Part shown: positions 13,147 through 57,196 of the stretch, piece by piece | Layout: every line of letters begins with the position of its first letter | Numbering within the stretch: the stretch's first letter is position 1 | From: Nitrospinota bacterium | Lineage (GTDB): Bacteria > Nitrospinota > Nitrospinia > JACRGO01 | Assembly (NCBI GenBank): GCA_016212295.1 | Contig: JACRGO010000042.1 | Location: forward strand, 1 to 61,754 | Reading direction: 5' to 3' | Length of the DNA: 61,754 nucleotides | The notes under the pieces: model-generated | What the model was told of the DNA's origin: nothing | Seen by the model: only the letters and a program-made list of their open reading frames with translations | Database searches by the model: none | Position numbers and translations under genes: made by a program

Positions 13147-13172
13147 ATAGCGCGGCATGGCCGCAATCAAAA
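13147..13172 (+). repeat. GCGGC-box (REP-like)
   Basis: ATAGCGCGGCATGGCCGCAATCAAAA. Confidence 0.85.
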
Positions 13173-13207
13173 CGTAATATATAAAGCCTTTTCCTGCTAT
13201 TCCTAAA

Positions 13208-14116
13208 ATGAAAAAAGATTTTGACGACGATGACGATTTAGAGGAATTGGATGACGATGGCTTCGATGGAGAGAAGAACGGGTCTGATTCCGAGGATTAT
13301 GATTATGATGACGACCTCGATGACTTAGAGGAGTTGGAGGACGAGGAAGACGTCAAGGCCAATGTGAAAACCGGCGCACCCCCTTTCCCCGCAAAGGAAA
13401 AGGCGGATGATCTGGCGGAAGCGGAAGAGGACGCATGGGAGGAAGAAGAGGTAAGGAAAGCCCCTTCTTCCGCGAAATTGGAAAAGAAGAAAGACGATGA
13501 CGACTCCTCATTTTTCGAGGAAGCGCCGGATGAGGAGGATGATCTTGGCATCACAAAGGGGCCGGCCGCGCATGTGGCGGAGCCAGTAACAGCAGCGTTC
13601 AAGGTCCCCGCTGCTGCCCCTTTCCTCGCCGCTGAAGCCGCCAAACCAGCCGCGAAAGGGGTCCAACCTGTTTTAATCATTCTTCCGGCGATAGCCATTC
13701 TGCTGGGTATCGGGCTCTACTTTTTCAAAGGAGGGAAAAGCGGGGACTTGGCGCCCGGCCAGCCATCGCAACAGGAAAAAACGGTCCCGCCAATCCAGAC
13801 GCCCGCTTTTAAAAAACCCAAAATCGATGATTCCATCCCTGACCATTACGAGGAAATGAAGAGAATTGAGATATCCGACCCTCTTAAAATCGCTTCGCTT
13901 GCCGATCGCGGTTTATTGAAAAAAAACGCCGAGGATTCCAGCCGGGAAGTAGGGAAGTTGACGCTTGTTCTTTATAAAACGGATGTTCGATATGTGGTCT
14001 CCCAGACCTATCATTATGCCGATGGCGGCAAATGGACGGTGGAAACACAGTTTTCCGACCTTGGCGCGGACCCGGAAGAGGTGGCCAAGGCGTTCGACGA
14101 TGTTTACGCGGGTTAA
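13208..14116 (+). CDS. hypothetical single-pass membrane protein with a hyper-acidic N-terminus
   Basis: The first ~110 aa are dominated by D/E runs (DDDDDLEELDDDGFDG, DYDYDDDLDDLEELEDEED). There is one TM helix, VLIILPAIAILLGIGLYFF. Confidence 0.5.
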   Translation: MKKDFDDDDDLEELDDDGFDGEKNGSDSEDYDYDDDLDDLEELEDEEDVKANVKTGAPPFPAKEKADDLAEAEEDAWEEEEVRKAPSSAKLEKKKDDDDSSFFEEAPDEEDDLGITKGPAAHVAEPVTAAFKVPAAAPFLAAEAAKPAAKGVQPVLIILPAIAILLGIGLYFFKGGKSGDLAPGQPSQQEKTVPPIQTPAFKKPKIDDSIPDHYEEMKRIEISDPLKIASLADRGLLKKNAEDSSREVGKLTLVLYKTDVRYVVSQTYHYADGGKWTVETQFSDLGADPEEVAKAFDDVYAG

Positions 14117-14336
14117 AAAAAATCGTAATAGTTCAGCCCTGTCTAATCCAAATGAGCTGTTATGCTGGTTTTTAATAACTCCGCCATTTATGGCGGAGAA
14201 ACGAAAACAACTACCAGGCTTTATCCATGACTTTACTGCCCGCGCATCGTGCGCTGACAGGCGAATACAATCAGGGCTAAAGCCCTAGTTAGTTTGTTCG
14301 CAGGCTCCAGCCTGTATCGTGTATCCTGCGTTTCCT

Positions 14337-16775: not shown

Positions 16776-16835
16776 AATGAAATATCCTAACCCGAATAAA
16801 CCGGAAAAGAAAAGGAATGGAACGCGGATGACGCG

Positions 16836-17000
16836 GCGCGGCATGGCCGCAACCAAAATGAAAACAAAATCCCAAATGACAAATAGCAAATAAATTACAA
16901 TTACCGAATGCAAAAAACAATTCCTTTTCATTGTTTTTCCTTGTAATTTTGGTTATTGAGATTTATTTGTTATTTGACAATTGTTATTTGGAGTTTCATA
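16836..17000. repeat. GCGGC-box + family A word-hairpin element (full copy)
   Basis: GCGCGGCATGGCCGCAACCAAAATG, then an AT-rich left arm, the loop CCGAATGCAAAAAACAATTCC, and the right module TTGGTTATTGAGATTTATTTGTTATTTGACAATTGTTATTTGGAGTTTCAT. Confidence 0.9.
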
Positions 17001-17093
17001 AAGAGTTTTCTTGCATTTTCGCTAGATTTGCCCTTAACATTAAAAGATAAAATTTGATATTTCATCGCAAAGCTTTGCGGTTATTAATATTTT

Positions 17094-20557: not shown

Positions 20558-20576
20558 GGGTTGGCGAGCTTTTTTT

Positions 20577-20684
20577 CACCACAAAGACACCAAGCGCGCA
20601 AAGAAAAAATTATAAAAAAGTTTGTGGCCTTGGTGTCTTTGCGGGGAATTCTTGGTTCTCTTGGTTGCGGCCACGTTGCGCTAT
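20577..20684. repeat. family C hairpin (CAAAGAC words) + inverted GCGGC-box
   Basis: CACCACAAAGACACCAAGCGCGCAAAG (20577-20603) versus TTTGTGGCCTTGGTGTCTTTGCGGGG (20621-20646). Followed by TTGGTTGCGGCCACGTTGCGCTAT (20661-20684), the box in reverse orientation. Confidence 0.8.
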
Positions 20685-20927
20685 GGTTTTAAAAAAATCA
20701 TAACGGCGGCAAGCCCGGGAAGTCAAGGAAGGGGACGCGCAAAGACCACAAAATTTTTAAAAAATTTCAAAAATATGAATATTTTACCGATAAGCTGAAT
20801 ACTGGAGTTTTCTTCCCGTCCGCATAGGAAACAATTTCCCCTTTTCCCCTTCTCTTCAATAGTATTTCTTCCCCCTTAATTTGCCTAACTGTTTGTTTTT
20901 TAAGCGTTTTTGGAGTTGCGCCATATT

Positions 20928-24934: not shown

Positions 24935-25039
24935 GTGGCCGCCGCGCAAGTTGCGAACCATGTAATGGAATTTTATAATTATTGAAATGTATATTCCATT
25001 ACGTTCAGAAATTTATTTTGATCGCGTCCGTACCTCGCT

Positions 25040-25504
25040 ATGAATTACCACGGATATACCTTAATAATACACATCGCCTCGGCCTCGGCTTTCGCCATGG
25101 CCATGATCATCATGCAACTGGTTGTGGCGAACGTGATGAAGCGGATTCCGGATAGCCCCGGAAAAAAGGACGCCTCTCTTTTCATACAAAAAAAATGGCA
25201 TCCGGTAGTGGACGGCATAATCATTGCCGTCGGGGCCTCGGCTGCGGTCCTGGCCGCTTCAAGCTGGGGGGTAATACAATCAAGTCCGATCTTGTCAGCC
25301 AAGGCGGCCTTCGGTTCAGCGGCCCTCTGCTCGGCATACGCCAATCATTTCGTGTTCCGGTACTGGAAAAGGGGGCTTAGCGCGTCTGGAAAAAATCCGG
25401 GCCTTCTGAAAAAACTTGGAAAGACCACCGCTGTCCTTGACAAGACGGCCCTAGTCTGCGGAGTTATCACGGTTTGCCTCGGCTGGCATTGGGGGCATGG
25501 TTAG
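25040..25504 (+). CDS. hypothetical 4-TM membrane protein
   Basis: 154 aa, hydrophobic. Its end overlaps the start of the next gene by 8 nt. Confidence 0.45.
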   Translation: MNYHGYTLIIHIASASAFAMAMIIMQLVVANVMKRIPDSPGKKDASLFIQKKWHPVVDGIIIAVGASAAVLAASSWGVIQSSPILSAKAAFGSAALCSAYANHFVFRYWKRGLSASGKNPGLLKKLGKTTAVLDKTALVCGVITVCLGWHWGHG

Positions 25505-27370: not shown

Positions 27371-27466
27371 GATAGTCATTGGTCAATAGTCATTTCTCAT
27401 TGATAAACAGGAAGACACCCTAATGGCCAGTGACCAATGACTCTTTAAAGTCCGCCCGAAGGACGC
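27371..27466. repeat. word-hairpin element, family F (TAGTCATTGGTCA words) with conserved tail
   Basis: GATAGTCATTGGTCAATAGTCATT (27371-27394) versus TAATGGCCAGTGACCAATGACT (27421-27442), then CTTTAAAGTCCGCCCGAAGGACG (27443-27465). Confidence 0.75.
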
Positions 27467-30021: not shown

Positions 30022-30057
30022 TCGAAATTTATTTTGGGTGCGGCCACGCCGCGCTAT
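30022..30057 (-). repeat. extended GCGGC-box (reverse orientation)
   Basis: TCGAAATTTATTTTGGGTGCGGCCACGCCGCGCTAT is the reverse complement of ATAGCGCGGCGTGGCCGCACCCAAAATAAATTTCGA. It fills the cbiXC-to-rSAM intergenic gap. Confidence 0.85.
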
Positions 30058-31154
30058 AATTTATCGAACAACAACAGCACTGCGTTCATTATGGCCGCGG
30101 CTATGGGACTACCGCCTTTTCTTCCGCGGACCGCCACGCAGGGAATGCCGCTCTGGATAAGGGCGTCCTTGGATTCCTCGGCGTCAACGAATCCCACCGG
30201 CGTGCCGATGACGAACCCGGGCCTGAAGCCTTCCTTCTTATGCAGCCGGACCACCTCCCGCAGGGCCGTGGGGGCGTTCCCGATCAAGACTCCTCCGACG
30301 TTGGGCAGAGAGGCGCCTTTGCGGATGCCTAAGCAGGACCTGGTCAGTCCCGTCCTCTCCGACTCCGCCTTCAAGCCTTCATCGGAGATGAAACAATGCA
30401 AATCCATCCCGTATTTGGCTGTGAGTTTCCTGTTCACCCCTGCCATTACCATATTAACGTCCGTTAAAAGGGCCTTTGAGCCGGATATCGCTTCCTTCGC
30501 GGCCTCAAGGAAACCGGGATGAAAGTAGATCAACTTGGCGAATTCCAGATCGCCGGAGGCATGGACCGCCCTTTGGACAATAGGCAGTTCGTTTGGGCTG
30601 AAATGGTTCTCCCCCATTTCCTCCAGGATTATTCTAAAACTTTCCGCTTCGATTTCATCTGGTCTGAATTTTCCCACAGCGCGCGCAAGGGCCGGCGCGG
30701 CCTTGGCCTCGGCGTCATTTACTATTACGGCCTCCGAGGGGATCTCCGCCTCCCGGATGTCCTTGAAGGACGCGGCCTCAGCCAGGCGTTCGAGAAGTAT
30801 GTCCACCAATAGCGGGTGGAATCCGATGTTCCTGGCATAGGTGATCCGCATGTCCGGATATTTCAGCGCCTCCTGCTTGATTATCTCCGGGAGGTCCCTC
30901 CTCACGTGCATGCCCATGTGAAGAAAATACGGGGCCACGATGATTTGCTCCGCGCCCTTTTCCGCGCATGCCCTTATGCCTTCAGGGATGTCCGGGGGGC
31001 ATAGTTCCAGAAAGGCCGTCCGCACCGTGAGGAAGACGCCCTTTTCCTCCAACGACCTGGCCACCCTGAGCATATTGCCATTGGCTTCCTTCACCCGGCT
31101 CCCGTGTCCGAGAAGAAGGGCCGCTGTTTTTTTTCCCGCGAATTGATTGTCCAT
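30054..31154 (-). CDS. fused CbiX-like cobaltochelatase / CbiC (precorrin-8X methylmutase) protein
   Basis: The N-terminal half has LLLGHGSRVKEAN and APYFLHMGMHV (CbiX-type). The C-terminal half has GNAPTALREVV, VIGTPVGFVDAEESK and RGRKGGSPIAAAIMNA (CbiC/CobH-type). Confidence 0.8.
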   Translation of the reverse strand: MDNQFAGKKTAALLLGHGSRVKEANGNMLRVARSLEEKGVFLTVRTAFLELCPPDIPEGIRACAEKGAEQIIVAPYFLHMGMHVRRDLPEIIKQEALKYPDMRITYARNIGFHPLLVDILLERLAEAASFKDIREAEIPSEAVIVNDAEAKAAPALARAVGKFRPDEIEAESFRIILEEMGENHFSPNELPIVQRAVHASGDLEFAKLIYFHPGFLEAAKEAISGSKALLTDVNMVMAGVNRKLTAKYGMDLHCFISDEGLKAESERTGLTRSCLGIRKGASLPNVGGVLIGNAPTALREVVRLHKKEGFRPGFVIGTPVGFVDAEESKDALIQSGIPCVAVRGRKGGSPIAAAIMNAVLLLFDKL

Positions 31155-31222
31155 TAATCGCCTTTAGTTAATAAGAAAAAATTCAATAGATAAAGAAAAG
31201 TTGATTTTTTTAATAGAACATT

Positions 31223-31263
31223 GCGCGGCTTCGCCGCAACCAAAATAAATTTTCCGTGCATCA
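31223..31263 (+). repeat. extended GCGGC-box variant
   Basis: GCGCGGCTTCGCCGCAACCAAAATAAATTTTCCGTGCATCA. Confidence 0.8.
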
Positions 31264-31329
31264 AGGCATTTGATGATATTATAATACCAGACCAAACGCC
31301 AAGCCAGAACCAACGGGAGAAAATTCCGA

Positions 31330-33870: not shown

Positions 33871-33882
33871 ACGGAAAGACCT

Positions 33883-34599
33883 ATGTCCGAGAAAGAGACC
33901 CTCATCCCCAAACACGGCGGCTACCGGAAGCTGAAAAGTTTTCAAATAGCGCAATTGGTTTTTGATATTACCGTGCGCTTCTGCGAACGTTACATAGACA
34001 AGCGCAGCCGGACCACCGACCAGATGGTCCAGGCGGCGCGATCGGGGGTGCAGAACATCGCCGAGGGGAGCCAAGCCTCCGGGACCTCCAAAAAAATGGA
34101 ACTCAAACTCACCAACGTGGCCCGCGCCAGTATCGAGGAACTGCGCCTGGATTACGAGGATTTTCTAAGACAAAGAAACCTCCCCCTCTGGGGCCGCGAA
34201 GACCCCCGAAGACAAGACCTGATAAACAGGAGGTGTTCCACCGCCGATGAAGTGGCCCTCTGGGTAAAGGAAATACACGACCGTGGACGCCATGGACGGA
34301 GTGGACAGGGCAAACTCAAAGATCAGAATCATTCGTCCACAGCGTCCAATAGGTCCACCTCGTCCACTGTTTTTACTTCGTCCACCTATCCCGAAATCAC
34401 GGCGAATGCCGCCCTGACGCTCATTGCCGTGGCGCGCAGCCTCCTTGACCGCCAGCTTGCCGCTCAGGCAAAATCATTTGAAAGAGAAGGCGGCTTCACC
34501 GAGCGCCTCCACCGGGTGCGCTCCCAAAAACGCTCCTCCGCATCCGCCCGGTCCACGAAGTCCATTCCGTCCACCAAGAATAAAGGAACCCCATGTTAG
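33883..34599 (+). CDS. four-helix-bundle protein (TIGR02436-like, with suffix domain)
   Basis: YRKLKSFQIAQLVFDITVRFCERY...QMVQAARSGVQNIAEGS...ARASIEELRLDYEDFL. It carries an in-frame GTCCAC-word hairpin insertion. Confidence 0.7.
   Translation: MSEKETLIPKHGGYRKLKSFQIAQLVFDITVRFCERYIDKRSRTTDQMVQAARSGVQNIAEGSQASGTSKKMELKLTNVARASIEELRLDYEDFLRQRNLPLWGREDPRRQDLINRRCSTADEVALWVKEIHDRGRHGRSGQGKLKDQNHSSTASNRSTSSTVFTSSTYPEITANAALTLIAVARSLLDRQLAAQAKSFEREGGFTERLHRVRSQKRSSASARSTKSIPSTKNKGTPC
34281..34386. repeat. in-CDS word-hairpin (GTCCAC/GTGGAC words)
   Basis: CCGTGGACGCCATGGACGGAGTGGACAG (34281-34308) versus CGTCCACAGCGTCCAATAGGTCCACCTCGTCCAC...TCGTCCACC (34334-34386). Translated in frame as RGRHGRSGQG...SSTASNRSTSSTVFTSST. 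Confidence 0.75.
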
Positions 34600-39457: not shown

Positions 39458-39590
39458 GGGTGAATGCTGTATGGAAAAAGCCATAGAACTTGAAAATCAC
39501 GGGAGGCCATGCGGCGGATATAACCAGACTGCTTCAGCGACTCGTGGGAAAAAACGCCTTGACCCAGGAAGGCCAAGGCTAAAATGTTAC

Positions 39591-39677
39591 GATTTTGTAA
39601 TTTTGGTATTGAAATTTATTTGTTATTTGACAATTGTGATTTGAAATTTTATCCGCGATAATCCGCGTTATCCGCGT
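39591..39677. repeat. family A right module + (ATCCGCG) words
   Basis: GATTTTGTAATTTTGGTATTGAAATTTATTTGTTATTTGACAATTGTGATTTGAAATTTTATCCGCGATAATCCGCGTTATCCGCG. Confidence 0.85.
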
Positions 39678-43092: not shown

Positions 43093-45459
43093 TTAGTTTG
43101 TGCCAAACTTTTTTTGTAGTTGTTTTTCGCATTCCGGCCGCGCCTCCTTGAACCATTCTTCAAGGGATCCGCAACGGGCGGCGAATTCTCTTTTTCCTAT
43201 TGGCCGTCCGTCCGCGAAGCTGTAACCGAAGTCGATTAAGGGAAGAAGCCGCTTCATGAAGGTAAAATGGTAATTCACGGCCTTTGCCGGATGAAAATAT
43301 TCCAAATGGGGCCAATCCAGCCTGTTTACCGGCGTTTGCTCTTTAACTCCAAGAGCTTTCAAGCACCTGGGCTCCAATACGTTGGGGATCAAAGCCCGCT
43401 CCCTCAACCGTTCCCTAAGTCCCTCCCCCATCACCTTTTCATACCCTGCCAATGGCAAATCCCCTTGGTCAAATATTTCCATTTTTGCCTTCAGCGGCCT
43501 GTCGGAACAGGCCAGGACGTAATAAGCGTCGTAGACATAGTTCATCGCGCAAAATGGAAAACTCCTGTTCAAGGTTTTTAATAAAATAGGCACGGCCTGA
43601 GGATGGAGGCGGACGTCGAACCAAAGGCTCAGGATGCCCCCAGGGTTCAAGTGCTCCACGGCCAGCCGGTAGAATTCCTCCGTATACAACTTGCTGGAAG
43701 CGGGAAAGAAGGGCGCGGTCACGGAATTGATTATCATGTCGTATTTCTTCTTGCTATTAATCAAATACTGAAAGCCGTCCCCCTGGAAAATCCGGGTCTT
43801 CGGGAGCCTGTGGACGTTGAAATTGATGTCCGCGAAGCGGTCCTGCAGCCGGATCACCTCCGGATTCAGTTCCACCATATCCACGCGCTCAAAAAAAACC
43901 GCGGCGGCGCCCGCTGACATCCCTGTCCCGAAGCCCAAGACCAGCAGATCCTTTCTTCCATCAGCATACATGGCCGCCACGCTTCCCGCCGTGGCTTCCT
44001 CGGAAGGAAGGTCCAGGCTGACGTACCCGTCCATGAAATATTTTTGCCGCTCCCTGTTTTCCTTCGGGGAGAAATAATGCCTTAAGGCAAAGGTCTGGTC
44101 ATTGGAAGGAAACTCTTCCACGAGGACCGTAAGGCGTTCTTTCTTTTGCAAGACCGAAAAGGACCTGAAGCCATCCAGACTTATAAAATAAAGGGCCTGG
44201 TTCCAGGCAAAAAAACCGCAAAATAAAAAAAGCAGCGTGATGGAGGAATACAATATCTTGAGTTTCACGGGCGTCCCGGGCAGAAAAAGAAATGAAAAAA
44301 CCGCCGCCATGGACCCGACAACAAAGACGATTTTAATCGGCAGATTTGGGTGCAGGACAAGAGTGAAAAGAAGATAACCAAAAACGTTTCCAAGCCCGGA
44401 CACAAACAGAAGCAGACCTGAGTCCCTGCTGACGGCTTCGCTTGATTGCAGGCAAGCAGGGACCGAGGCCCCAAAAAAAAGCAGGGGAAATCCCAGCCAT
44501 AGCGGGGCCAGAAACCAAGCTATCTCAGCAGGAAGGGAAAGCTTTATGGCAATGGAATTCAGGATGGCCACGGAATATAACATCGCGGGTTGGGCCAAGA
44601 ACCAAAAGGCGGTGGAAACAGCCGCCGCGGGAAATACCCGCATGGACAAGGAAGGTTTTTTCTGGACCAGCCAGGTCCCGGCGGATAGGTAAAAAAATAC
44701 CGTGGCCAGGGCGAGCGCGAAATTGGAGTTAAACCTTCCAATGGTGTAATAGACCGTTTTCAAGAAAAATAATTGGAAAATAGCGCTGGAAACGGAAATG
44801 ATGAAAAGCGACAGAAGCAACGTTGGCCGGAATGCCTTTCTCCATTCAACCGCTGCCTCGGAAAAACCGGTTTTCCGTGACAGGATAAACACGGAAAAAC
44901 CGGCAAAAAGGTTCATGGTCCCCATGATATAGGCGGTCCGGCTCACGGGCGTGGCCCTTAATAAAATAAATTCAATGAAAAGCACTCCTCCTATGGCGCC
45001 AAGGTTATAGGCGATATAAATAATCCGGAAAGGGTGTTCCCTGAAATATTCCTTGATATAACGGGCGAACATTGGAACCGACATGCCGACTAGTACCGCC
45101 GGAGCGAAAGTCAGCAAGCTGGCGCCGGCCAGGGCCGAGGAATGGGAAATGGAAAAGAGGTGAAGAAACTTGGCCCCGCCATAACTCCCGGTTGCGGAAA
45201 TAAGCCCGAAAAAGGCCATGGTGTAAAGTCCAAGCCCGGTCTCCACCAGCCACAAATAACGGATGAACTTGTGGGCCAAAAGCCCTCCGAGCGCAATGCC
45301 TGACAGAAAGGAAACCAGAATCGCGGCATTCACGGAAAAGGTATGGCCCAATACGCTGGTCAGCGCGCGGTTGTAAAGGACCTCGTAGCCTGTCCCGCAA
45401 GCCCCGGAAAGGGTGGCAAGCAAGAGGTAAAAAATCCGAATGAAATGAGTGGGATTCAT
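43093..45459 (-). CDS. fused polytopic membrane / spermidine-synthase-like (class I SAM-dependent) protein
   Basis: About 450 aa of TM helices, then LVLGFGTGMSAGAAAVFFERVDMVELNPEVIRL and MIINSVTAPF. I chose the ATG at 45459. Confidence 0.7.
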   Translation of the reverse strand: MNPTHFIRIFYLLLATLSGACGTGYEVLYNRALTSVLGHTFSVNAAILVSFLSGIALGGLLAHKFIRYLWLVETGLGLYTMAFFGLISATGSYGGAKFLHLFSISHSSALAGASLLTFAPAVLVGMSVPMFARYIKEYFREHPFRIIYIAYNLGAIGGVLFIEFILLRATPVSRTAYIMGTMNLFAGFSVFILSRKTGFSEAAVEWRKAFRPTLLLSLFIISVSSAIFQLFFLKTVYYTIGRFNSNFALALATVFFYLSAGTWLVQKKPSLSMRVFPAAAVSTAFWFLAQPAMLYSVAILNSIAIKLSLPAEIAWFLAPLWLGFPLLFFGASVPACLQSSEAVSRDSGLLLFVSGLGNVFGYLLFTLVLHPNLPIKIVFVVGSMAAVFSFLFLPGTPVKLKILYSSITLLFLFCGFFAWNQALYFISLDGFRSFSVLQKKERLTVLVEEFPSNDQTFALRHYFSPKENRERQKYFMDGYVSLDLPSEEATAGSVAAMYADGRKDLLVLGFGTGMSAGAAAVFFERVDMVELNPEVIRLQDRFADINFNVHRLPKTRIFQGDGFQYLINSKKKYDMIINSVTAPFFPASSKLYTEEFYRLAVEHLNPGGILSLWFDVRLHPQAVPILLKTLNRSFPFCAMNYVYDAYYVLACSDRPLKAKMEIFDQGDLPLAGYEKVMGEGLRERLRERALIPNVLEPRCLKALGVKEQTPVNRLDWPHLEYFHPAKAVNYHFTFMKRLLPLIDFGYSFADGRPIGKREFAARCGSLEEWFKEARPECEKQLQKKFGTN

Positions 45460-45637
45460 AACGCGACGCGGCCGCAAGCTTCTGAACGTTATAATTGTAT
45501 TCCGGCAATTGCCGCCTATCATAAGATTCAGGGTGAGCGGAGTCAACAGGCAAATTAAAAAAATTAAAATTTTGCTTCAATAGCGCATGGGGTGAAAAGC
45601 CGTCTTTGATTGTGTTAATATCATTAAATGTTTTAAT

Positions 45638-45676
45638 GCATCGAAAATTTATTTGGTTGCGGCAACGTCGCGCTAT
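45638..45676 (-). repeat. extended GCGGC-box (reverse orientation)
   Basis: GCATCGAAAATTTATTTGGTTGCGGCAACGTCGCGCTAT. The terminal CTAT plus G forms the ATG of the DUF2062 gene. Confidence 0.85.
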
Positions 45677-46127
45677 GTATCGATATTTCAGCAGAATAAA
45701 AGAACACTTCCTGCAGATTCTTATTTTAGATGGTTCACCTCACAAGGCTTCCCTGGCCTTTGCGATTGGGGTGTTCATCGCCTTTGCTCCTCACTTAGGC
45801 CTGCATACGGTCTCGGCCGTTGCCCTTTCCTGGCTTTTAAGGCTGAATCTTCCAATCATGCTGATAGGGGCGTTTTTAAATAATCCCTGGACCATTATTC
45901 CACTGTATGGATTTTGCCTGTGCGTGGGTAACTATATGCTTGGGAATGGATTCATTTGCCTTCCCGCCGGGCTTTCCGGGGACGAGCTGCTTGATTTCCT
46001 GAAAACCACCCCCCTTCCATTCGTGGCCGGGACATTAACGACTGGATCCCTGGCCTCGGTTATGAGCTATTTCATCTCGAAAAGGGTCCTGGCCCTGGTG
46101 CATCCGGCAACAGACAAAAGAACATAG
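45675..46127 (+). CDS. DUF2062 domain membrane protein
   Basis: GSPHKASLAFAIGVFIAFAPHLGLHTVSAVALSWLLRLNLPIMLIGAFLNNPWT. Confidence 0.65.
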   Translation: MYRYFSRIKEHFLQILILDGSPHKASLAFAIGVFIAFAPHLGLHTVSAVALSWLLRLNLPIMLIGAFLNNPWTIIPLYGFCLCVGNYMLGNGFICLPAGLSGDELLDFLKTTPLPFVAGTLTTGSLASVMSYFISKRVLALVHPATDKRT

Positions 46128-46129
46128 CT

Positions 46130-46287
46130 TAGCGCGGCATGGCCGCAACCAAAAACAAGAAATAACCACAAAGGACACAAATTTGAACGCTTTGTGGTAA
46201 AAAATACTCTAGCCAGAATTACAAATGACAAACAAGGAAATGGAATTGTTTTGGGCATCCGGTAATTGTAATTTGTAATTTGAACGC
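46130..46287. repeat. GCGGC-box + small family C-like hairpin + family A hairpin
   Basis: TAGCGCGGCATGGCCGCAACCAAAAAC. ACCACAAAG...CTTTGTGGT (46164-46199). GAATTACAAATGACAAACAAGG versus CCGGTAATTGTAATTTGTAATT. Confidence 0.85.
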
Positions 46288-46322
46288 CGTCTTAATTTTT
46301 TTAGGAGGTTTTTGGTCCCGCT

Positions 46323-47594
46323 TTGGACGAGTCTATAATTATTCGATTAATATTTCTCGGGGCCCTGCTTGCCCTTTCCGCCTTTTTCTCCGGCTGCGAG
46401 GCGGCCTTTTTTTCTCTTAGCAGGCTGAAGGTCGACAACCTTGAATCCCAAAAGGGCCGAAGGGGGAAAATGGTCGCCGCCCTCCTCGCCAACCCCAGGC
46501 TGCTCCTGACCGTTATTTACGCCGGCAATGAGATGGTCAACGTCGCGGCGGCAGCGGTTGTCACCTCTGTTTCCATCCATTTCCTTGGCGACTCCGGCGT
46601 CGGCTTCGCCATAGGCATCGGGACTTTGCTGATCCTGGTCTTTGGGGAAATCACCCCTAAAACGCTTGTATTGAGACACGCCGAGAGCTTCGCCCTGGGC
46701 GCCGCCCCCTTTCTCAATATTTTCTCCCTTCTCATTAAGCCAGTGAACCAATTATTGGCCCGCATCGCCGATCTTTCCGTGCACATCTTTTTACCTATAC
46801 ATAGAAAAAAGGGAGAGCTTACCGAGGGAGAAATCAAAACCATCGTCACGGTCGGGGAAGGGGAAGGGGTCATCGAAGCCGACGAAAAGGACCTTATCCA
46901 CAACATCTTTGAATTTGGAGACACCACCGTCTCGGAAATAATGACCCCGAAGAACGATGTTTTTTCCCTTGACGCCAACACCTCGGTCCCGGATATCATC
47001 TCACGCGCGAAGAAAACCTTTTTCTCCAGAATTCCGGTTTACGAGGACAATAAGGAAAATATCATCGGCGTCCTTTATATGAAGGACATCCTGAGGCTGC
47101 ATATTTCCGGCAAAAAAGATCTGTCTCTTCGCCAGATGCTGCATCCGGCCTTCATCATTCCCGAATCAAAGAAGGTGCGGGACCTGTTGAGGGACTTTAA
47201 AATCAAGAAGGTCCACCTTGCCGTGGTCTACGACGAATACGGCGGCCTGGAGGGAATCGCTACCCTTGAGGACGTCCTTGAGGAAATAGTAGGGGAGATT
47301 GAAGGGGAGCGGCGAAGGGACGATGTGCCTGTCATCAAGATGAATGAGAATGAATATGCCGTCCTTGGCAATGTGCCGATTCAGGACTTCAACGAGGAAT
47401 TCGGCTCTTCCCTGCCGGACGAGGAATACAACAGCATAGGAGGATTTGTTTTCAGCCTGCTTGGAAGGCTCCCCATCAAGGGAGAATCTGTTTCCCATGA
47501 AAACATGCGGTTTATAGTGGACAAGGTGAAGGGACCCAGGATTTTAAGGCTATTGCTGAAGGTGAATATTAAACCGGAAGAAAAGGCAGCATAG
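46323..47594 (+). CDS. CNNM/TlyC-family protein (DUF21-CBS pair-CorC_HlyC)
   Basis: FFSGCEAAFFSLSR and GEITPKT (DUF21), a CBS pair, and the C-terminal GGFVFSLLGRLP (CorC_HlyC). TTG start. Confidence 0.8.
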   Translation: MDESIIIRLIFLGALLALSAFFSGCEAAFFSLSRLKVDNLESQKGRRGKMVAALLANPRLLLTVIYAGNEMVNVAAAAVVTSVSIHFLGDSGVGFAIGIGTLLILVFGEITPKTLVLRHAESFALGAAPFLNIFSLLIKPVNQLLARIADLSVHIFLPIHRKKGELTEGEIKTIVTVGEGEGVIEADEKDLIHNIFEFGDTTVSEIMTPKNDVFSLDANTSVPDIISRAKKTFFSRIPVYEDNKENIIGVLYMKDILRLHISGKKDLSLRQMLHPAFIIPESKKVRDLLRDFKIKKVHLAVVYDEYGGLEGIATLEDVLEEIVGEIEGERRRDDVPVIKMNENEYAVLGNVPIQDFNEEFGSSLPDEEYNSIGGFVFSLLGRLPIKGESVSHENMRFIVDKVKGPRILRLLLKVNIKPEEKAA

Positions 47595-47780
47595 CGCGAC
47601 GCGGCCGCAATCAAAAGGAAATGGGAAACAAAATTACAAATGACAAATATCAAATTACAAATAAATTCCAAATTACAATTACCGAATGTCCAAAACAATT
47701 CCATTTCCTTGTTTGTCATTTGTAAATTTGGTTATTGAGATTTATTTGTGATTTGGCAATTGTGATTTGGATTTTCATAA
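47591..47780. repeat. GCGGC-box + family A word-hairpin element (full copy)
   Basis: ATAGCGCGACGCGGCCGCAATCAAAAGG; the gene's TAG stop at 47592-47594 lies inside the box. Nested inverted words follow: GGAAATGG/CCATTTCC and ACAAATGACAAA/TTTGTCATTTGT. The right module ends in TTTCAT. Confidence 0.9.
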
Positions 47781-47872
47781 CACTTTGCAAAAAAAACAAA
47801 GTGTTATACGTTTGTAGTACAGGAGGAGACTTGAAATTCTTCAGCAATCAATTCAATAAGGGCCTGCATGGT

Positions 47873-49213
47873 ATGTTTTTCCGCGCCCTGCCTGGATGTG
47901 CATTGTTAGTTGTGCTGTTTGGATGCTCCAAACCGCCGGCTGAAAACCTGCTCTTTATTTCCTTTGACACCACGAGGGCGGACCACCTCTCGGCTTACGG
48001 CTATAAAATTAAAACTTCGCCCAATATCGACGCCCTTGCCGCCCAGGGCGTCCTTTTCCAAAGGGCCTTTTCCCATGCGCCTTCCACCCTGCCGTCCCAT
48101 GCTTCCATGTTTACAGGAAAACTACCCCCGGACCACGGCGTTCGCTGCAACGGCAAATTCACGCTGCCGGAAGAACAATTAACGCTTGCGGAAATACTAT
48201 ACGGCAACGGATTTGAAACCGGCGCGGTATTGGGGGCCTTTCCGTTGGACAAGCGTTTCGGACTGGACCAGGGATTCAGTTTTTATGATGATGATTTCAG
48301 ATTGTCACAATTAACTTTAAAACACCAGGCAAGCGAAAGGGTAATGGACAAAGTGGGCTTCTGGCAGGGGCAAACTTATTTGGATTTTGAGCGCAATGCG
48401 TATGAGGTCACAACCCTTGCCACAAAGTGGCTGCAAAAAACAAAGGGAAGGTGGTTCCTTTTCGTTCATTATTTTGATCCACACGAGCCTTATGAACCGC
48501 CCCCGGCTTGGAGGACGCTCTTTGAAAATCAGTATGACGCTGAAATCGCCTTCGCGGACCGCCAGTTAGGGAAGCTCCTGGAGACCGTGAATTCGATGCC
48601 TGGGAAGACGTTAATAGTTTTTACCGCTGACCACGGACAGGGATTGGGAGACCATGGGGAGATAACCCATGATCGCTATCTGTACGACTCCACCCAATGG
48701 ATCCCCCTCGTCTTTTGCATGAAAGATAAGATTAAAGCTGGGAGCAAAATCATAAATCCTGTGAGCCATATAGATGTAATGCCGACCATTCTTGATTTAT
48801 TGGGCGTTCCTTCCACCGAAGGCATTCAAGGAAGGTCATTGGCCAAGGCCATCCTTGCCGGGGAAGACCTGGAAAATAAACCCATTTACATGGAATCCCT
48901 TAGCCATAAACTGGAAAAGCCTGAAGGCATTGACGTCAGGGGCCTGGTGCGGGATAACTGGAAATTCATACTCACCAATGAAGAACATGGGGGTAAAAAG
49001 ACTATAAGGAAAGAGCTTTATGATCTGGACTCCGGGGGGGGGGGGGGGGGGGAGAACGCCGATTTGTCATTAAAGGAAGCGGGCCGCGCCGCTGAGATGG
49101 ATAAAAAATTGTCAGGCTGGGTGGAAAAACTGGAACATGAAGGGGCTAAACCAAACCCCCTTAAAATCAGCGAGGAAACAAGGCAAAAGCTGAAAAGTTT
49201 GGGGTATTTATAA
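47873..49213 (+). CDS. sulfatase-like (alkaline-phosphatase superfamily) lipoprotein
   Basis: Lipobox-like LLVVLFGC. LLFISFDTTRADHLSAYGY metal site. The nucleophile region reads APSTLPSHASMFTG, i.e. T-x-P-S-H rather than C/S-x-P-x-R. I chose the ATG at 47873. Confidence 0.75.
   Translation: MFFRALPGCALLVVLFGCSKPPAENLLFISFDTTRADHLSAYGYKIKTSPNIDALAAQGVLFQRAFSHAPSTLPSHASMFTGKLPPDHGVRCNGKFTLPEEQLTLAEILYGNGFETGAVLGAFPLDKRFGLDQGFSFYDDDFRLSQLTLKHQASERVMDKVGFWQGQTYLDFERNAYEVTTLATKWLQKTKGRWFLFVHYFDPHEPYEPPPAWRTLFENQYDAEIAFADRQLGKLLETVNSMPGKTLIVFTADHGQGLGDHGEITHDRYLYDSTQWIPLVFCMKDKIKAGSKIINPVSHIDVMPTILDLLGVPSTEGIQGRSLAKAILAGEDLENKPIYMESLSHKLEKPEGIDVRGLVRDNWKFILTNEEHGGKKTIRKELYDLDSGGGGGGENADLSLKEAGRAAEMDKKLSGWVEKLEHEGAKPNPLKISEETRQKLKSLGYL
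49034..49052 (+). repeat. G19 homopolymer inside the sulfatase-like CDS
   Basis: I counted 19 consecutive G from 49034 to 49052. They encode Gly6 in the current frame (DLDSGGGGGGENADL). Confidence 0.95.
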
Positions 49214-49286
49214 GAAGATGCTTGCACGGAATATCCGGGAATTCGTCTCTTATCAATTAAAACCAGGAAAAAAATAAAAGATTTTT

Positions 49287-49493
49287 AACCACGAATGGAC
49301 ACTAATGAACACTAATTATTTTTAGTAGTTTTATAAAATTCGTGTTAATTCGTGGTTCAGGTTGCCTTTTTTTCAAACAGCTAAAATGTTACAAAATTTC
49401 AAATATTTTAGGATAGTTCTTAGTGTTTCTTGGCGGCTTTGTGTCTTAGTGGCAAAAAAAATGGTAAACACAAAACCACGAAGAAACACGAAT
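49287..49493. repeat. two word-hairpins, family E (ACCACGAAT / ACACTAAT / GTGTTTCTT words)
   Basis: AACCACGAATGGACACTAATGAACACTAATT (49287-49317) versus AATTCGTGTTAATTCGTGGTT (49337-49357). CTTAGTGTTTCTTGGCGGCTTTGTGTCTTAGTGG (49419-49452) versus AAACACAAAACCACGAAGAAACACGAAT (49467-49493). A related GAACCACGAATGACCACGAATT lies at about 27283-27304. Confidence 0.8.
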
Positions 49494-49550
49494 ATTCTAT
49501 GAAAACACACCTTTTGATCTTTAGAAACAATTAGCGCATAAATTATAAGA

Positions 49551-50810
49551 ATGGACCCGAACATAAGCATCATCATAATAGTCCTCTGCCTGGTTATCGA
49601 GGCGTTTTTTTCCGGCTCGGAAATCGCCTTCATTTCAGCAAACAGATTCAAGCTCAAGCATAAGTCTGAATCCGGCTCCATCGGAGCTAGGCTGGCTGAC
49701 AAACTGTTGGACCGCCCGGAACGGATCTTCGCCACCACTTCGGTGGGGACAAACCTGGCGGTAGTCACCGGCACCGCCCTTTGCACCTCCATGCTGGTTG
49801 GCCCTTATGGCGACAAGGCCGACCTCTATTCCACCCTTATCATGGTCCCCGTCATATTGCTTTTCGGCGAGATCATACCCAAGGCCATATTCCAGGAAGC
49901 GGCGGACGCGCTTTGTCCCAGAATCGCGCGCCCTCTCCAATGGTTTATGTCCATTTTTTATCCAGCGGTCGCGCTCATGTCATGGGTCACTAATACCTTT
50001 CTGAAAAGTATTTCCCAGGACCAGTTGGAGAAGGGACAACTCCTCACGAGAGACGAGCTTCAGCAGTGGCTGCAAATAGGGGGCAAGGAATCCGAACTGG
50101 ACGATGAAGAAAGAAAAATGATCCATAATATCTTCCGCTTCAGCGAGATGTCCGTGGAGAAGTGCATGGTACCCCTGATCCATACCGTGGCGGTGGAAGA
50201 GAACTCCACCGTAAGCCACGCCCTCAAGGTTTTTGAAGAATCGCAAAGCACGTACTCGCGCATGCCTGTATTTCAAAACCGCATATTCAATATCACCGGG
50301 ATTTTGAACACTTTCGATTTCCTCGATTGCACGGAGCCCGATCAAGCCATCAAGCCCTTTCTCCGCCCGGCCTATTTTGTGCCAAGGACCAAGCCCATTG
50401 ACGATCTTCTAAGGGAGCTGCAGAACATGAGGATGCACATGGCCATTGTGGTGGATGAATACGGGGGCGCCATAGGGCTCGTCACCATGGAAGACCTTCT
50501 TGAAGAGATTGTCGGAAAAATCGAGGACGAGTACGACGAGGAAGAAAAGCCTTATGAAAAGATATCGGATTATAGATACGTCATGGACGCCGCCGTGGAA
50601 ATCGACGCCATAAACGATGATCTGTCCCTGGACCTGCCTGTGGGCGACTATGAGACCCTTGGGGGATTTATCCTGGACATAATCAAGCGGATACCGAAAC
50701 AAGGGGAAAAAATAGACTTTGAAAACTTCGCCTTCCGGATCAAGGAAGCGGACCCAAAACGCATACTCTCAGTGGAGGTGTTGATCAAACCGGCGAAAAA
50801 CGCGGAGTGA
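49551..50810 (+). CDS. CNNM/TlyC-family protein (second paralogue)
   Basis: [21 protein letters not shown], a CBS pair, and [12 protein letters not shown]. Confidence 0.8.
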
Positions 50811-50830
50811 AGGGTCTCCACGGATTGCCG

Positions 50831-50959
50831 CAGCGCTGCTTCGACGCAACCAAAATGAGAGCAAAATTTCAAATCCCAAATAGCAAATTACAAATAAGTT
50901 CCAAACTACAATTGCATAGAGCGGCATGGCCGCAACCAAAATAAATTTCGATGCATTCA
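50831..50959. repeat. two GCGGC-boxes flanking a family A arm
   Basis: CAGCGCTGCTTCGACGCAACCAAAATG, then an AT-rich arm, then CATAGAGCGGCATGGCCGCAACCAAAATAAATTTCGATGCATTCA. Confidence 0.85.
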
Positions 50960-50990
50960 GGGCTGGGCCAGCAGGATAGTAAGGGAAGAG

Positions 50991-51860
50991 TTGGAAAAGA
51001 AAGATGCCGCCCCATTCAGACACTGGCGCCTGGCTGCCCAGTCCCTGCTGGATATCCACAAGGACAATAGGGACGCGGATGTGGTGCGTCTTGCAAGGCA
51101 AAGATTACAGTTTATTCTTACAGCGAAAGAAACCCCGAAAATCAAGGCCGAGGCGGGTGAGATTTTGGGGTGGCTGGGTGACCCCAGGGGGGACCTGGAG
51201 GAGCTAGTCAGGATAAAAGGGGGAGAATATGAGTTGGAGGATTTGGGCAAGGCAAATTTAAAACCCTTCGGGATAGGAAAATATCCGGTGGCCAACCAGT
51301 GGTTTGAAAAGTTTATTCAGGCCGGAGGGTATAAAGAAGAAAATTGGGAAAGATACTGGACCCCGGAAGGAAGAAAGTGGATGAAGGAGAATAAGCCCCA
51401 GGCCCCTCTGTATTGGCACGAGCGGCAATGGAATTGCCCCAACGCTCCGGTGGTGGGGGTGAGCTGGTACGAGGCGGACGCCTTTTGCCGTTGGCTCACG
51501 GAAGAAAGGAAGGATGGGTTTGTTTATCCCAGGAGTGGCAGGCTGCGGCAGCCGGAAAGGGTGAAAAGGAAAGAGAATATCCTTGGGGGGAATGTGTGGG
51601 AGTGGACAAGATCGGATTACCACGCGAGGACGGAGCGCGATGATTTTTTGTTTGATGAGGAAATACAAAAACTCTATGATACGGAGAGTAGGGATGAACT
51701 ACGAAAGAAATGGCAAGAGAAAAATCGTCAATTGCCGTCGCTCCGGGGCGGTTCGTGGTACTTCTACCGTTGTTTCGCCGGGTGCGCCTACCGCTACTGG
51801 AACTACCCGTACGTACGGTACTTCGATATCGGGTTTCGTTGCGCCAGGACTTCAAAATAA
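50991..51860 (+). CDS. FGE/SUMF1-domain protein, apparently 5'-truncated and carrying a compensated frameshift
   Basis: The N-terminus has a HEAT-like AEAGEILGWLGDPRG. FGE motifs are VVGVSWYEADAFCRWL, GGNVWEWT and LRGGSWY...GFRCART. The expected motif between them (LSQEWQAAAAGKGEKEREYPWG) is in another frame (51413 ORF). TTG start directly after a repeat. Confidence 0.65.
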   Translation: MEKKDAAPFRHWRLAAQSLLDIHKDNRDADVVRLARQRLQFILTAKETPKIKAEAGEILGWLGDPRGDLEELVRIKGGEYELEDLGKANLKPFGIGKYPVANQWFEKFIQAGGYKEENWERYWTPEGRKWMKENKPQAPLYWHERQWNCPNAPVVGVSWYEADAFCRWLTEERKDGFVYPRSGRLRQPERVKRKENILGGNVWEWTRSDYHARTERDDFLFDEEIQKLYDTESRDELRKKWQEKNRQLPSLRGGSWYFYRCFAGCAYRYWNYPYVRYFDIGFRCARTSK

Positions 51861-51950: not shown

Positions 51951-52054
51951 CTTAAATTCCCCTCTGGAGAGGGGTGGCCGAAGGCCGGGGTGTGTCTTTT
52001 CTCGTTCCCAGGGTTGTCATGAAAAACCGGAGAAAACCTCATTATCTATTTTTT

Positions 52055-52157: not shown

Positions 52158-52297
52158 TGTTTCACCTGCAATTGAGCATGAAGCTGTTTTCCATGATATC
52201 CCGTGAACAGTTACCTTTTATCTTTTCTTCGCGACCTTTGCGGCTTTGCGCGAGAAAAAGAGTTTAACCTACAAGAAACATCAACAAGGAACTTTTA

Positions 52298-53449: not shown

Positions 53450-53730
53450 AAATTTGAAATTGTAAATTGAGGACCTTGCCGGCTCCATAATCCCGCAAGG
53501 GCGAAAGAGCAATTCCGCCAATTTAAACTGCAAGAGTGATTTTTGCGGTTTTTTCTTTTGTCGTTTTAATGGGATAAAGGTATAATAAGTTTCCTGCCAA
53601 TAAAGAAGAAACAAAATGAAGGCATTGATAGTTGACTTAAAAGACAAAACGAACGACGTGCTTTATAAGAAGCGGCGGGAGAAGGATTTAAAGAACCACC
53701 CTTTTTTCGGAATGTTGGAAGCGGACAAGG

Positions 53731-53820
53731 TAAATCCTTTCTTCCTTTTTCGACGTTCGATGTTCAGCGTTGGATGTTCGATGTTCAATTCTTTAAAGCC
53801 CGCCCGAAGGGCGTTAAATT
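53731..53820. repeat. family B half element with conserved tail
   Basis: TAAATCCTTTCTTCCTTTTTCGACGTTCGATGTTCAGCGTTGGATGTTCGATGTTCAATTCTTTAAAGCCCGCCCGAAGGGCGTTAAATT is about 90 percent identical to 75-163. Confidence 0.9.
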
Positions 53821-53918
53821 CTAATCCAACCTTGGGGCCGCTGACGCCATCATAGCCGCGACCGCGGTTGAGAATGATTTAACCCTTCTGACGTCTTTTC
53901 TCCAGGCCGGAACGCGCC

Positions 53919-56900: not shown

Positions 56901-56996
56901 GAACCGCGGCTGCTTCAAACCGGCGGGAAGGTCAAGGCCGGTTACCTGGGCATCCTGATGTTTTATATGTTCCTCTACATCCTTTCCGTTGCCTGA
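53919..56996 (+). CDS. cNMP-binding - GAF - degenerate sigma-54-type AAA+ - NapH/NosR-like polytopic 4Fe-4S membrane domain protein
   Basis: cNMP fold (FGAISILTGQRRRLDAV). GAF (ITGWVVRNCEPVKLEN...SILSVPL). AAA+ with Walker A GEAGTGKE, ELFG and WPGNVAELENV, but no GAFTGA loop (MEGEEAGPA instead) and Walker B LFLRNI instead of LFLDEI. There is no C-terminal HTH. Instead there are more than 8 TM helices with CAVCPF, WCRYLCPMG and CVLCMQCLKNCPLGA. Confidence 0.75.
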   Translation: MSDIQKYISFLKVHPPFNQMPYDLVEKVAWTLQVHHYGAGRTIFRKGEEAMIFYIIHKGVVRELVRGDDGKETVISLLRSGECFGAISILTGQRRRLDAVVEEDVELYVIYKADLERLFSENPGMIMYFNRILTFKLNMFFEYFDRGMITVAGKDRSTEELARELSAMDEIAKILSAEGDVEDSLQQVVEILREWTRTDACSMFLLDNMSDRLELKASSGFDIPEGKPVIMKASEGITGWVVRNCEPVKLENASSDPRAKFIAEIHEERFKSILSVPLVAGGESFGAINFHTIRPRKYKYEEVKGVAIAGGHIALALSNAKLKKRIEVDTDILRLEKGAEPDDFVGRSPLSKKINEFVDKAAGSSSPVLIEGEAGTGKELIARLIHSSGTRKGGPFLEADCGQFAADSWGAELFGMEGEEAGPARILRRGYVEMAEGGILFLRNIEKLNGVCQMALFNFLESGFFNRVGSKTQIGGNVRIICSSKASLKELAHSGSFNKNAYEALSRFEFKLEPLRKLKRFVPELCDYLLKRIGRQIGKEGMALSAPAVEKVLSYDWPGNVAELENVLKGAAILTEGKVIGAGQLFFPARSLKDKPVYDLLAHSWLSNFLRGRFFPDYLGKGMFFIFAVLLGYLLTHPDEKFFTSGIWAIGWFSIFLSAFFLGRVFCAVCPFMVGGDLLRKVKSFNLKCPPFISNHGEAVAAALIFVVLWMEGAFGFHFTPLYTAGLLLFIALGAMACSVLFQRRVWCRYLCPMGSFIGTFSLTSFLSVSADRYVCTYRCANHECYVGKGDSPGCQLFLHPYGMESQAQCVLCMQCLKNCPLGAVNLNLQFPATGIIAMVKPFMAAALASSGLLGVMPVETKAILGPGSFFFDDFKSMAGMGAAPLYTVIFLCAAVLPAFLFFLVEKVLGGHGFRKSMARFAWIGYSALPLAVLGHAAFYWKKVVMWVEDGMQDYGILPIDFLSANLIFYALYFAIMILGALGSIHTFLRLSRHEPRLLQTGGKVKAGYLGILMFYMFLYILSVA

Positions 56997-57000
56997 GGGG

Positions 57001-57196
57001 GAAACCAAATTTCAAATGACAAATAACAAATCCCAAATAAATTCCAAATTACAATTGCTGAATGTGCTGAGCAATTCCTTTTCCTTGTTTGTTCTTTGTA
57101 ATTTTGGTTATTGAGATTTATTTGTGATTTGACATTTGTGATTTGGAGTTTCATGGCGCGGCACGGCCGCAACCAAAATAAATTTCGACGTATTCA
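57001..57196. repeat. family A word-hairpin element (full copy) + extended GCGGC-box
   Basis: AT-rich left arm, the loop GCTGAATGTGCTGAGCAATTCC, the right module TTGGTTATTGAGATTTATTTGTGATTTGACATTTGTGATTTGGAGTTTCAT, then GGCGCGGCACGGCCGCAACCAAAATAAATTTCGACGTATTCA. Confidence 0.9.

Follow-up and report, generated by a model that had tools for sequence, protein, structure and literature searches.

The 61,754-nt contig JACRGO010000042.1 of a Nitrospinota bacterium (assembly GCA_016212295.1), here called the window, contains eleven copies of a short palindromic sequence, the GC-box, at gene boundaries. Comparison with loci from other phyla makes it likely that the GC-box forms one end of a mobile element and that its eleven copies here derive from that element without being autonomous. 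The box would be the left-terminal recognition module of a family resembling insertion sequences (IS) and would comprise C-N-Y-A-G-C, the GCGGC/GCCGC hairpin, and AACCAAAA. The autonomous element would be about 1.7 kb long and consist of the box, a leader stem that hides the ribosome-binding site and the start codon, one open reading frame (ORF) of about 515 amino acids (aa), and a short hairpin followed by ...GGTTAGTAGTACAG. The eleven window copies would be units of 65-260 bp that retain the box and a right-end-like tip, with an interior that is short or missing. Their insertion sites would be intergenic or, in some cases, within the final codons of a gene, where the YAG of the element became the new stop.

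Copies of the GC-box in the window

The window contains 11 matches to GCGGCNNNGCCGCAACCAAAA with at most three mismatches, compared with an expectation of 0.11 for shuffled sequence. A covariance model of the 31-nt unit, run unfiltered and trained in part on the window copies themselves, recovered the identical 11 copies with 33.6-43.6 bits; the runner-up had at most 12.1 bits. The initial annotation, which was made from the sequence alone, had described about a dozen clear copies, and both searches find eleven of them where it had placed them. The units are listed here together with the element boundaries proposed for them.

Copy 1, 13145-13175, + strand (core match at 13152): CATAGC-GCGGC-ATG-GCCGC-AATCAAAA, 1 mismatch, 41.0 bits; between a phosphatase-like gene and the next + strand gene.
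Copy 2, 16831-16861, + strand (core 16838): 42.9 bits; left end of a putative non-autonomous element of ~262 bp, 16832-17092, which reaches the ATG of the GAF-HD gene.
Copy 3, 20656-20686, - strand (core 20659): 33.6 bits; inverted CGCAAAG/CACCAAG array after the box; upstream of a lipoyl-synthase-like radical SAM (rSAM) gene.
Copy 4, 30029-30059, - strand (core 30032): 38.9 bits; occupies the cbiXC-to-rSAM spacer; its TATAG gives the cbiXC stop.
Copy 5, 31218-31248, + strand (core 31225): 41.6 bits; putative minimal 72-nt element 31219-31290; internal hairpin CATCAA..TTGATG; right-end-like tip ATTATAATACCAG.
Copy 6, 45648-45678, - strand (core 45651): 38.0 bits; putative minimal 74-nt element 45604-45677; hairpin CATTAAA..TTTAATG; tip ends ...CAAAG.
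Copy 7, 46127-46157, + strand (core 46134): 43.6 bits; putative 85-nt element 46128-46212; hairpin CCACAAAG..CTTTGTGG; tip AATACTCTAG; begins directly after the DUF2062 stop.
Copy 8, 47589-47619, + strand (core 47596): 37.0 bits; 233-bp non-autonomous element 47590-47822 with both ends of the family; box TAG is the CNNM stop; internal inverted CAAAT array.
Copy 9, 50828-50858, + strand (core 50835): 34.4 bits; the most diverged clear copy (GCTGC-TTC-GACGC); half a CAAAT array follows.
Copy 10, 50914-50944, + strand (core 50921): 42.3 bits; unit 50915-50979; tail TAAATTTCGATGCATT; sits inside a CAAAT-array repeat.
Copy 11, 57151-57181, + strand (core 57158): 42.3 bits; unit 57152-57221; hairpin; tip ...GACGATAG; directly beside the right end of a CAAAT-array repeat; no other copy lies in a convergent gap.
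Decayed copy, 45456-45480, + strand: CATAACGCGACGCGGCCGCAAGC; repeat family D7; 11.6 bits.
Decayed copy, 25013-25043, - strand: CATAGCGAGGTACGGACGCGATCAAAATAAATTTC; repeat family D11; 11.2 bits; AAAATAAATTTC tail retained.

The decayed copy at 45456-45480 had been proposed as a degenerate copy in the initial annotation and is weak but recognisable, while three others proposed there (8549, 19501 and 59775) are plausible by eye and have no score. The decayed copy at 25013-25043 is an addition to that list. A tail, TAAATTTCGATGCAT, follows the box in five window copies. In Rfam, which the initial annotation had suggested searching, no family matches the box: no gathering-score match was obtained anywhere in the window, and none at E <= 10 overlaps a box in 45400-51100.

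A 27-nt block shared by more than ten phyla

Loci with the exact 21-mer pattern were collected with one genome per species (box-selected loci L001-L119). At least 119 loci have the 21-mer; more than ten phyla are represented. The hosts include Acidobacteriota, Verrucomicrobiota, Planctomycetota, Hydrogenedentota, Kiritimatiellia, Lentisphaeria, Binatia, Thermodesulfobacteriota, Ignavibacteriota, Armatimonadota, Poribacteria and others, with the cultured Chthoniobacter flavus among them, and none of the 119 loci listed is closely related to the window. Alignment of these copies revealed that the conserved unit is a sharp-edged 27-nt block, C-N-Y-A-G-C-GCGGC-N-N-A-GCCGC-AACCAAAA, outside of which the information content is about zero on both sides.

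When copies from the same genome were aligned, the upstream flanks differed up to the box, and the similarity ran in the 3′ direction only, over 70 to more than 400 nt. Judged from these alignments, longer repeats that are specific to a lineage begin with the box at their 5′ end; in two phyla, the part of the repeat downstream of the box is a gene. Inverted box doublets are present in some genomes, e.g. 74 nt apart in L070 and as box-AAAA-inverted box in JACPPM01. The comparison with REP/BIME repeats made in the initial annotation thus describes the box well as a dispersed, hairpin-containing intergenic repeat of a mobile type at gene ends, but the box is not genome-specific, as the 27-nt block recurs in more than ten phyla.

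The box precedes a 515-aa ORF in a full-length element

In 9 of the 119 box-selected loci listed, the box is followed at 60-100 nt, on its own strand, by the start of an ORF of ~515 aa (L015 and L100 in Hydrogenedentota; L001, L085 and L111 in Terriglobia; L119, L062 and L066 in Planctomycetia; L071 in Armatimonadota). The nine proteins are mutually 29-58% identical, with the box unchanged, and L015 and L100 have two identical 2-kb copies in different flanks. For the reverse sample, metagenome contigs were selected by the protein, which yielded 70 non-redundant loci with at least 150 nt upstream. C[CG]GCAACCAA lies upstream of the start in 56 of the 70 loci. Box and start are mostly 70-130 nt apart, and ~190 nt apart in loci with an additional long hairpin between them. 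Taken together, the two samples show that the box travels with the ~515-aa ORF across phyla.

Both ends could be assigned for 31 elements, which have lengths of 1694-1812 bp and unrelated flanks. The right end is strongly conserved and consists of a short hairpin after the stop codon, followed by ...GGTTAGTAGTACAG. In 38 of 43 elements, the terminal pentamer is TACAG, TATAG or CACAG, and in 28 of 43 the element is followed by AG. The left and right ends are different sequences, without clear terminal inverted repeats. In the leader, the stem ATGGCGTTCC...GGAACGCCATG hides both the ribosome-binding site and the start codon, a device common among insertion sequences that prevents expression from transcripts started outside. 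The protein family is represented for the most part only by contigs of 1.7-2.9 kb, often stand-alone, which is the expected look of multicopy elements in short-read assemblies. As a separate observation, the leader of a marine copy of the 516-aa element (L120-L129) is interrupted by an IS1595-family element with a duplication of 8 bp, TTCGACAA, and several contigs join that IS to unrelated upstream DNA.

The association of box and ORF could also arise if the box were a pre-existing host site that is targeted by the 515-aa element, as IS1397 or IS110 target repetitive extragenic palindromes (REPs). More than 90% of the boxes in the 119 loci listed have no adjoining ORF, and elements often lie beside other boxes or in phase inside CACAGAGNN arrays, which is a strong site preference. 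However, the loop and the CNYAG are identical among the copies of one element and variable among the solo boxes of one genome, which argues that the box belongs to the element and not to the target. In addition, gene-less derivatives have the box together with the family right end, the 72-85-nt window units are bounded by a box on one side only and the repeat starts at the box, and a related species, in which gene order also differs, lacks boxes at apparently orthologous sites. We consider it very unlikely that the box is a target site.

The arrays of CACAGAGNN flank many elements in phase, i.e. the array reaches the CACAG of the element and resumes with AG-NN-CACAGAG past the right end (L182, L183, L200, L195). 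This arrangement explains the frequent array flanks of boxes in other phyla. The arrays may be preferred targets, or they may be footprints or by-products of element activity. Arrays in phase were also seen at L156, L162, L169 and many of L001-L119; in other lineages, the repeated unit is CACGAAG, CACGGAT or CGCAGAG.

Probable short derivatives in the window and their position at gene ends

The window units comprise 65-262 bp and have no coding capacity. The right-end consensus, at no more than two mismatches, has a single match in the window (0.28 expected), which lies in unit 47590-47822 on the same strand as the box and 193 nt downstream of it. In this unit, the family's right-end hairpin, ACACTTTG-A8-CAAAGTGT, is followed by the tip CGTTTGTAGTACAG, also written GTAGTACAG. 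Unit 16832-17092 is built alike, with a right-end-like hairpin and tip, CGCAAAG-C-TTTGCG-GTTATTAATATTT, at 17066-17092, and its tip is more decayed. Several shorter units of 65-85 nt have one internal hairpin and a tip that ends with YAG, e.g. unit 31219-31290, the tip of which, ATTATAATACCAG, is similar to the IS right end ATTAGTAATACAG.

All 11 copies are intergenic as far as this can be judged, and none is located in a domain-coding part, in agreement with the gene-boundary preference described in the initial annotation. Eight of the 11 box cores lie wholly outside the longest possible ORFs, which cover 88% of the window, and the remaining three overlap only 5′ extensions of ORFs, upstream of the Pfam domain starts. 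The proposals that the CNNM gene stops at the TAG within CATAG (47592-47594), and that one copy occupies the whole cbiXC-to-rSAM spacer (copy 4), hold true; in addition, the TATAG of copy 4 supplies the cbiXC stop (30056-30054). The reverse complement of copy 6, CTATG, contains the likely start codon of the DUF2062 gene. This ATG at 45675 is a plausible start, given that the Pfam domain begins at residue 30 of the longer ORF, which starts with TTG. In other phyla, the excess of box TAGs used as stops is only mild: 3 of 28 TAG-bearing copies end a long ORF.

Two comparisons bear on how the copies arrived. The first is with a relative, L212, which was found via its cbiXC (87% identical). No box is present in its 12.3 kb, both sides of cbiXC included, and its gene order also differs. 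The cbiXC product ends with DKL in the window, where the stop lies inside the box TATAG, versus DKSK in box-free L212. The second concerns the copy at 50914, which interrupts a CAAAT-array repeat: ACAATTGCATAG is directly followed by AGCGGC, versus ACAATTACCGAATG in the intact copies. These comparisons suggest that the insertion was recent and element-borne and that the CNYAG arrives with the element. They also illustrate how a copy can alter the end of a coding sequence.

The lineage is poorly sampled: the nearest named relatives of the window LpxB are 50-54% identical and are from Nitrospinota. Exact-sequence look-ups of two window proteins retrieved no public contig, and a relative's contig found through LpxB (L211) is not syntenic with the window.

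Observations that weigh against an element end and for a host function

Several results argue against the interpretation of the box as an element end with its derivatives. The window contains no full-length element and no 515-aa homologue, and the right-end assignments of most of its short copies are tentative, because they are based on weak similarity. No target-site duplication is evident in the 31 complete elements, and no empty site was found. A weak internal inverted repeat, TAGCCGCAACCA versus TAACCTCAAACA (9/12), is equidistant from the two tips, which makes double-strand cut-and-paste a possibility. No recognisable catalytic domain was detected in the ~515-aa protein with Pfam, NCBIfam, PADLOC or PDB folds, and the protein could be a DNA-binding accessory rather than the transposase. 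Lastly, 10 of the 11 window copies face the downstream gene, four of them in divergent gaps, which is not predicted for a purely selfish element.

The orientation of the window copies would be compatible with a box that is primarily a functional element of the host, i.e. an RNA hairpin in 5′-leaders or between cistrons, or the operator of a regulator, with an incidental mobile origin. The stop codons and the probable start codon supplied by the copies would also fit, as would the conservation of the stem sequence itself, beyond pairing alone. However, the orientation bias in the window is weak, as it comes from six tandem-gene cases (two-sided p ~0.03). Across phyla, the orientation relative to the flanking ORFs is without preference (17, 18, 17 and 13 cases of >M>, <M<, <M> and >M<, respectively, with crude ORF calls), which argues against a general role at the transcript level. 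The transcript stabilisation or termination suggested in the initial annotation is therefore not borne out. Nor is the box an intrinsic terminator: no T-run is present on either strand, since AACCAAAA follows the hairpin, and GCTRNG does so on the other strand. Furthermore, the neighbouring genes are functionally unrelated to one another, Rfam has no match, and L212 has no copies at the same genes. A primary host function is therefore unlikely, and an element end with miniature derivatives remains the interpretation that we prefer.

The 515-aa protein family

For the 515-aa and 512-aa proteins, no Pfam or NCBIfam match was obtained at E < 0.01, and there was no PADLOC match; the PDB has no sequence match for the ~515-aa protein. 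PHROGs detects only a winged-helix segment, residues 454-496. Signatures of DDE, HUH, serine or tyrosine recombinases are absent. Candidate catalytic positions are found among the invariant polar residues, such as D20, E112, Y141-H142-Y143, E246, D250, K309-H310 and E330. An AlphaFold model built from 41 homologues is confident (mean pLDDT 86.5, pTM 0.80). A Foldseek search of the PDB found no chain at E < 1e-3, with best TM-scores of ~0.2; weak fold similarities are to TBP-like and ACT-like beta-sheet domains and to a MarR-type winged helix. The family is large, with 11,422 clusters at 50% identity that match at E <= 1e-3, although some of the weakest may cover the winged helix only, and 6,079 at E <= 1e-10.

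Distant homologues, 23-29% identical, are encoded on plasmids of Paraburkholderia, Burkholderia, Caballeronia, Rhodococcus and Mycobacterium and are annotated as 'ArsR family transcriptional regulator' or 'hypothetical protein'. In the Paraburkholderia copy, the start is preceded at a distance of about 45 nt by CTAAG-CCGGA-CGA-GCCGG-AACCAAAC. The homologues on the Mycobacterium, Caballeronia and Rhodococcus plasmids have no canonical box. On a Mycobacterium riyadhense plasmid (L213), CCTAG-CGACC-AAG-GGTCG and then GGTAG-CGACC-AAG-GGTCG-CTAC are found ~85-125 nt upstream of the homologue start. This repeat has the layout of the box (YAG, a 5-bp stem and a triloop) with another stem and without AACCAAAA, and it may be a diverged left end.

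The hairpin

The stem changes within the window had been regarded as compensated in the initial annotation. They are mismatches: GCGAC/GCCGC contains an A.C mismatch, and GCTGC/GACGC contains two mismatches. Support for the hairpin therefore comes from the loci outside the window. Among the protein-selected loci, GCGGC/GCCGC remains as the stem base, and the apex varies. The forms observed range from a 5-bp stem with a triloop and the 6-bp GCGGCC-TTC-GGCCGC to longer ones, namely a perfect stem of 21 bp (L132) and, in L147 and L180, stems interrupted by internal loops. The half-sites are thus up to 32 bp further apart in the linear duplex and yet adjacent when folded, which suggests conservation of the folded form. 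Two loci, the Paraburkholderia copy and L063, have C-G in place of G-C as the outer pair; most other stem variants are single mismatches in decayed copies.

From these variants we tentatively propose, with some hesitation, that the box acts in its folded hairpin form as the binding site of the element's protein. The hairpin would form on single-stranded or extruded DNA and, according to the structural model, might be bound by the TBP-like beta-sheet domains and the C-terminal winged helix. Alternatively, an enzyme supplied in trans would act at the box. We regard it as possible, but rather doubtful, that the 515-aa protein is a new kind of transposase or recombinase that recognises a DNA hairpin and inserts beside YAG motifs, often in phase in CACAGAGNN arrays; on this view, the box would define a very large, hitherto unannotated class of hairpin-ended elements in many phyla.

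RAYT genes and REPs

In the initial annotation, RAYT substrates were considered as one identity of the repeat. According to this classical REP/REPIN explanation, the boxes would be substrates of a RAYT encoded elsewhere in the genome, and the 515-aa element would merely carry or adjoin such a REP. The boxes are indeed short intergenic palindromes, sometimes arranged as inverted doublets (L070, JACPPM01), and the right end of the family contains GTAG. RAYT genes (NF047646, 103.9 bits) are present in two Terriglobia loci with boxes, L111 (reverse strand, 6496-7109) and L070 (1951-2650). In Terriglobia, the 10 nt that precede the box, GGTAGCGCAG, are the head of that RAYT's own REP.

However, both RAYTs are flanked by their own inverted REPs, GGTAGCGCAGAG...CTCTGCGCTACC, and not by GC-boxes, and the RAYT cassette of L111 interrupts the 512-aa gene. 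A RAYT is nearby in only 2 of the 119 loci listed, and the window has no RAYT gene. REPs are lineage-specific, whereas more than ten phyla share an identical block. On the 5′ side of the stem, the consensus reads C-N-Y-A-G-C, without a general GTAG or CGTC tag; window copies have CATAG, and the Terriglobia variant alone has GGTAGCGCAGC. A survey of GTAG/CGTC REPs does not contain the box motif (PMC3733652). Finally, the box is tied to the 515-aa ORF in 56 of the 70 protein-selected loci. We therefore regard an origin of the boxes as RAYT substrates as highly improbable, and retain the view that they are ends of the 515-aa element.

Comparison with known mobile elements

By analogy, the element might move like the asymmetric-ended IS200/IS605 elements rather than by classical inverted-repeat cut-and-paste. 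Shared features are the asymmetric ends, the lack of clear terminal inverted repeats and of visible target duplications, a hairpin near both tips, YAG on the same strand at the left and right tips, and many short end-only derivatives (palindrome-associated transposable elements); IS200 also has a leader structure that hides the ribosome-binding site. In contrast, the ~515-aa protein has no Y1/HUH (PF01797) or TnpB signal, and its predicted fold matches no solved transposase. The left hairpin of the box family is 1 nt from CNYAG, compared with ~20 nt from the cleavage site in IS200/IS605, and the CNYAG appears to be element-borne rather than a target motif, in view of copy 50914 and the cbiXC comparison.

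The similarity to REP/REPIN-RAYT systems lies in short, GC-rich, high-copy intergenic palindromes at gene ends, some of them inverted doublets, with a conserved 5′ tag by the hairpin; the box differs in being shared across phyla, in having a 515-aa ORF as partner, and in having no general GTAG or CGTC tag. Miniature inverted-repeat transposable elements (MITEs; Correia, RUP, ERIC-type) also are non-coding, lie between genes, and donate stops and starts, and the box units of 65-260 bp share ends with an autonomous element as they do. However, the box units have no inverted terminal repeat or target-site duplication, and their two ends differ. The units are probably MITEs in the broad sense, i.e. 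small, non-coding, and with terminal sequences shared with a coding element. IS110/IS1111 elements likewise have asymmetric ends, little or no inverted repeat, a strong target preference that includes repeats, and a structured non-coding left end upstream of a single ORF; in contrast to them, no DEDD or Transposase_20 domains were detected in the ~515-aa protein.

Four other candidates were rejected. The copies are solitary or irregularly spaced and thus not CRISPR repeats, to which the hairpin with its 8-nt tail has at most a formal resemblance. Spacing and key bases, judged by eye on the sequence, are unsuitable for sigma-54 or sigma-70 promoters. An integron attC would require R''/R' cores and a cassette array, which are absent. 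A tRNA-like minihelix would end with CCA, and two window copies have AATCA.

Other repeats and genes of the window

A second repeat family of ~156 nt consists of CAAAT-type heptamers arranged as a long imperfect inverted repeat (16844-16999, 47623-47778, 56999-57154), with partial copies at 8580-8660, 39586-39649, 46216-46313, 50864-50904 and 58044-58189. It lies inside two box-bearing units and beside a third, and a box or decayed box adjoins 7 of the ~10 arrays. Inverted arrays of CGCAAAG/CACCAAG-type heptamers, foldable into long hairpins, follow genes in the window (20560-20650) and in L212 (2330-2500). The array of L212 separates cbiXC from cbiD; in the window, a box and an additional rSAM gene occupy this place.

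A 90-nt repeat at 75-164 and 53731-53820 (93% identical; partial copy at 27442-27465) has no relation to the GC-box; it includes CGACGTT/CGATGTT heptamers as well as a GCCCGAAGGGC hairpin. Three tandem 33-nt repeats at 60877-60975, 82-97% identical to the reference copy, are probably within a coding region. Positions 31330-39457 contain a defence-type island with a GC content of 0.55-0.57, above that of the rest of the window, which encodes type I restriction helicase-like, 23S-rRNA-IVP-like, fused methylase-specificity and AAA_13 ATPase proteins. Two CNNM/CorC paralogues, 46323-47594 and 49551-50810, are each directly followed by a GC-box, and genes for a sulfatase and a sulfatase maturase are located downstream.

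Novelty and implications

An IS end with miniature derivatives is a well-known kind of thing. The present family, its 27-nt signature and its protein appear to be undescribed in Rfam, Pfam, NCBIfam, PADLOC, the PDB and the full-text literature; ISfinder was outside this scope, and a prior IS name is possible. Full-text searches with the box, its reverse complement and the typical flanking arrays gave unrelated primer matches only, and a keyword search of the literature found no described IS family of this kind.

For the Nitrospinota bacterium, the finding would explain a conspicuous repeat that shapes gene ends by providing stop codons and probably one start codon and by filling an operon spacer. 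Beyond this lineage, the 27-nt block offers a simple marker for the element in many uncultured phyla, and the elements are probably behind many contig breaks in metagenome assemblies. The partner proteins form a very large family, at present labelled 'hypothetical' or 'ArsR family regulator'. The cultured hosts of distant homologues, e.g. Paraburkholderia phytofirmans OLGA172 with its plasmid pOLGA1, open experimental access. If the protein were what mobilises the element, the known transposition chemistries would gain a new protein class, and a hairpin-specific DNA-recognition module would become available that might be of use as a tool.

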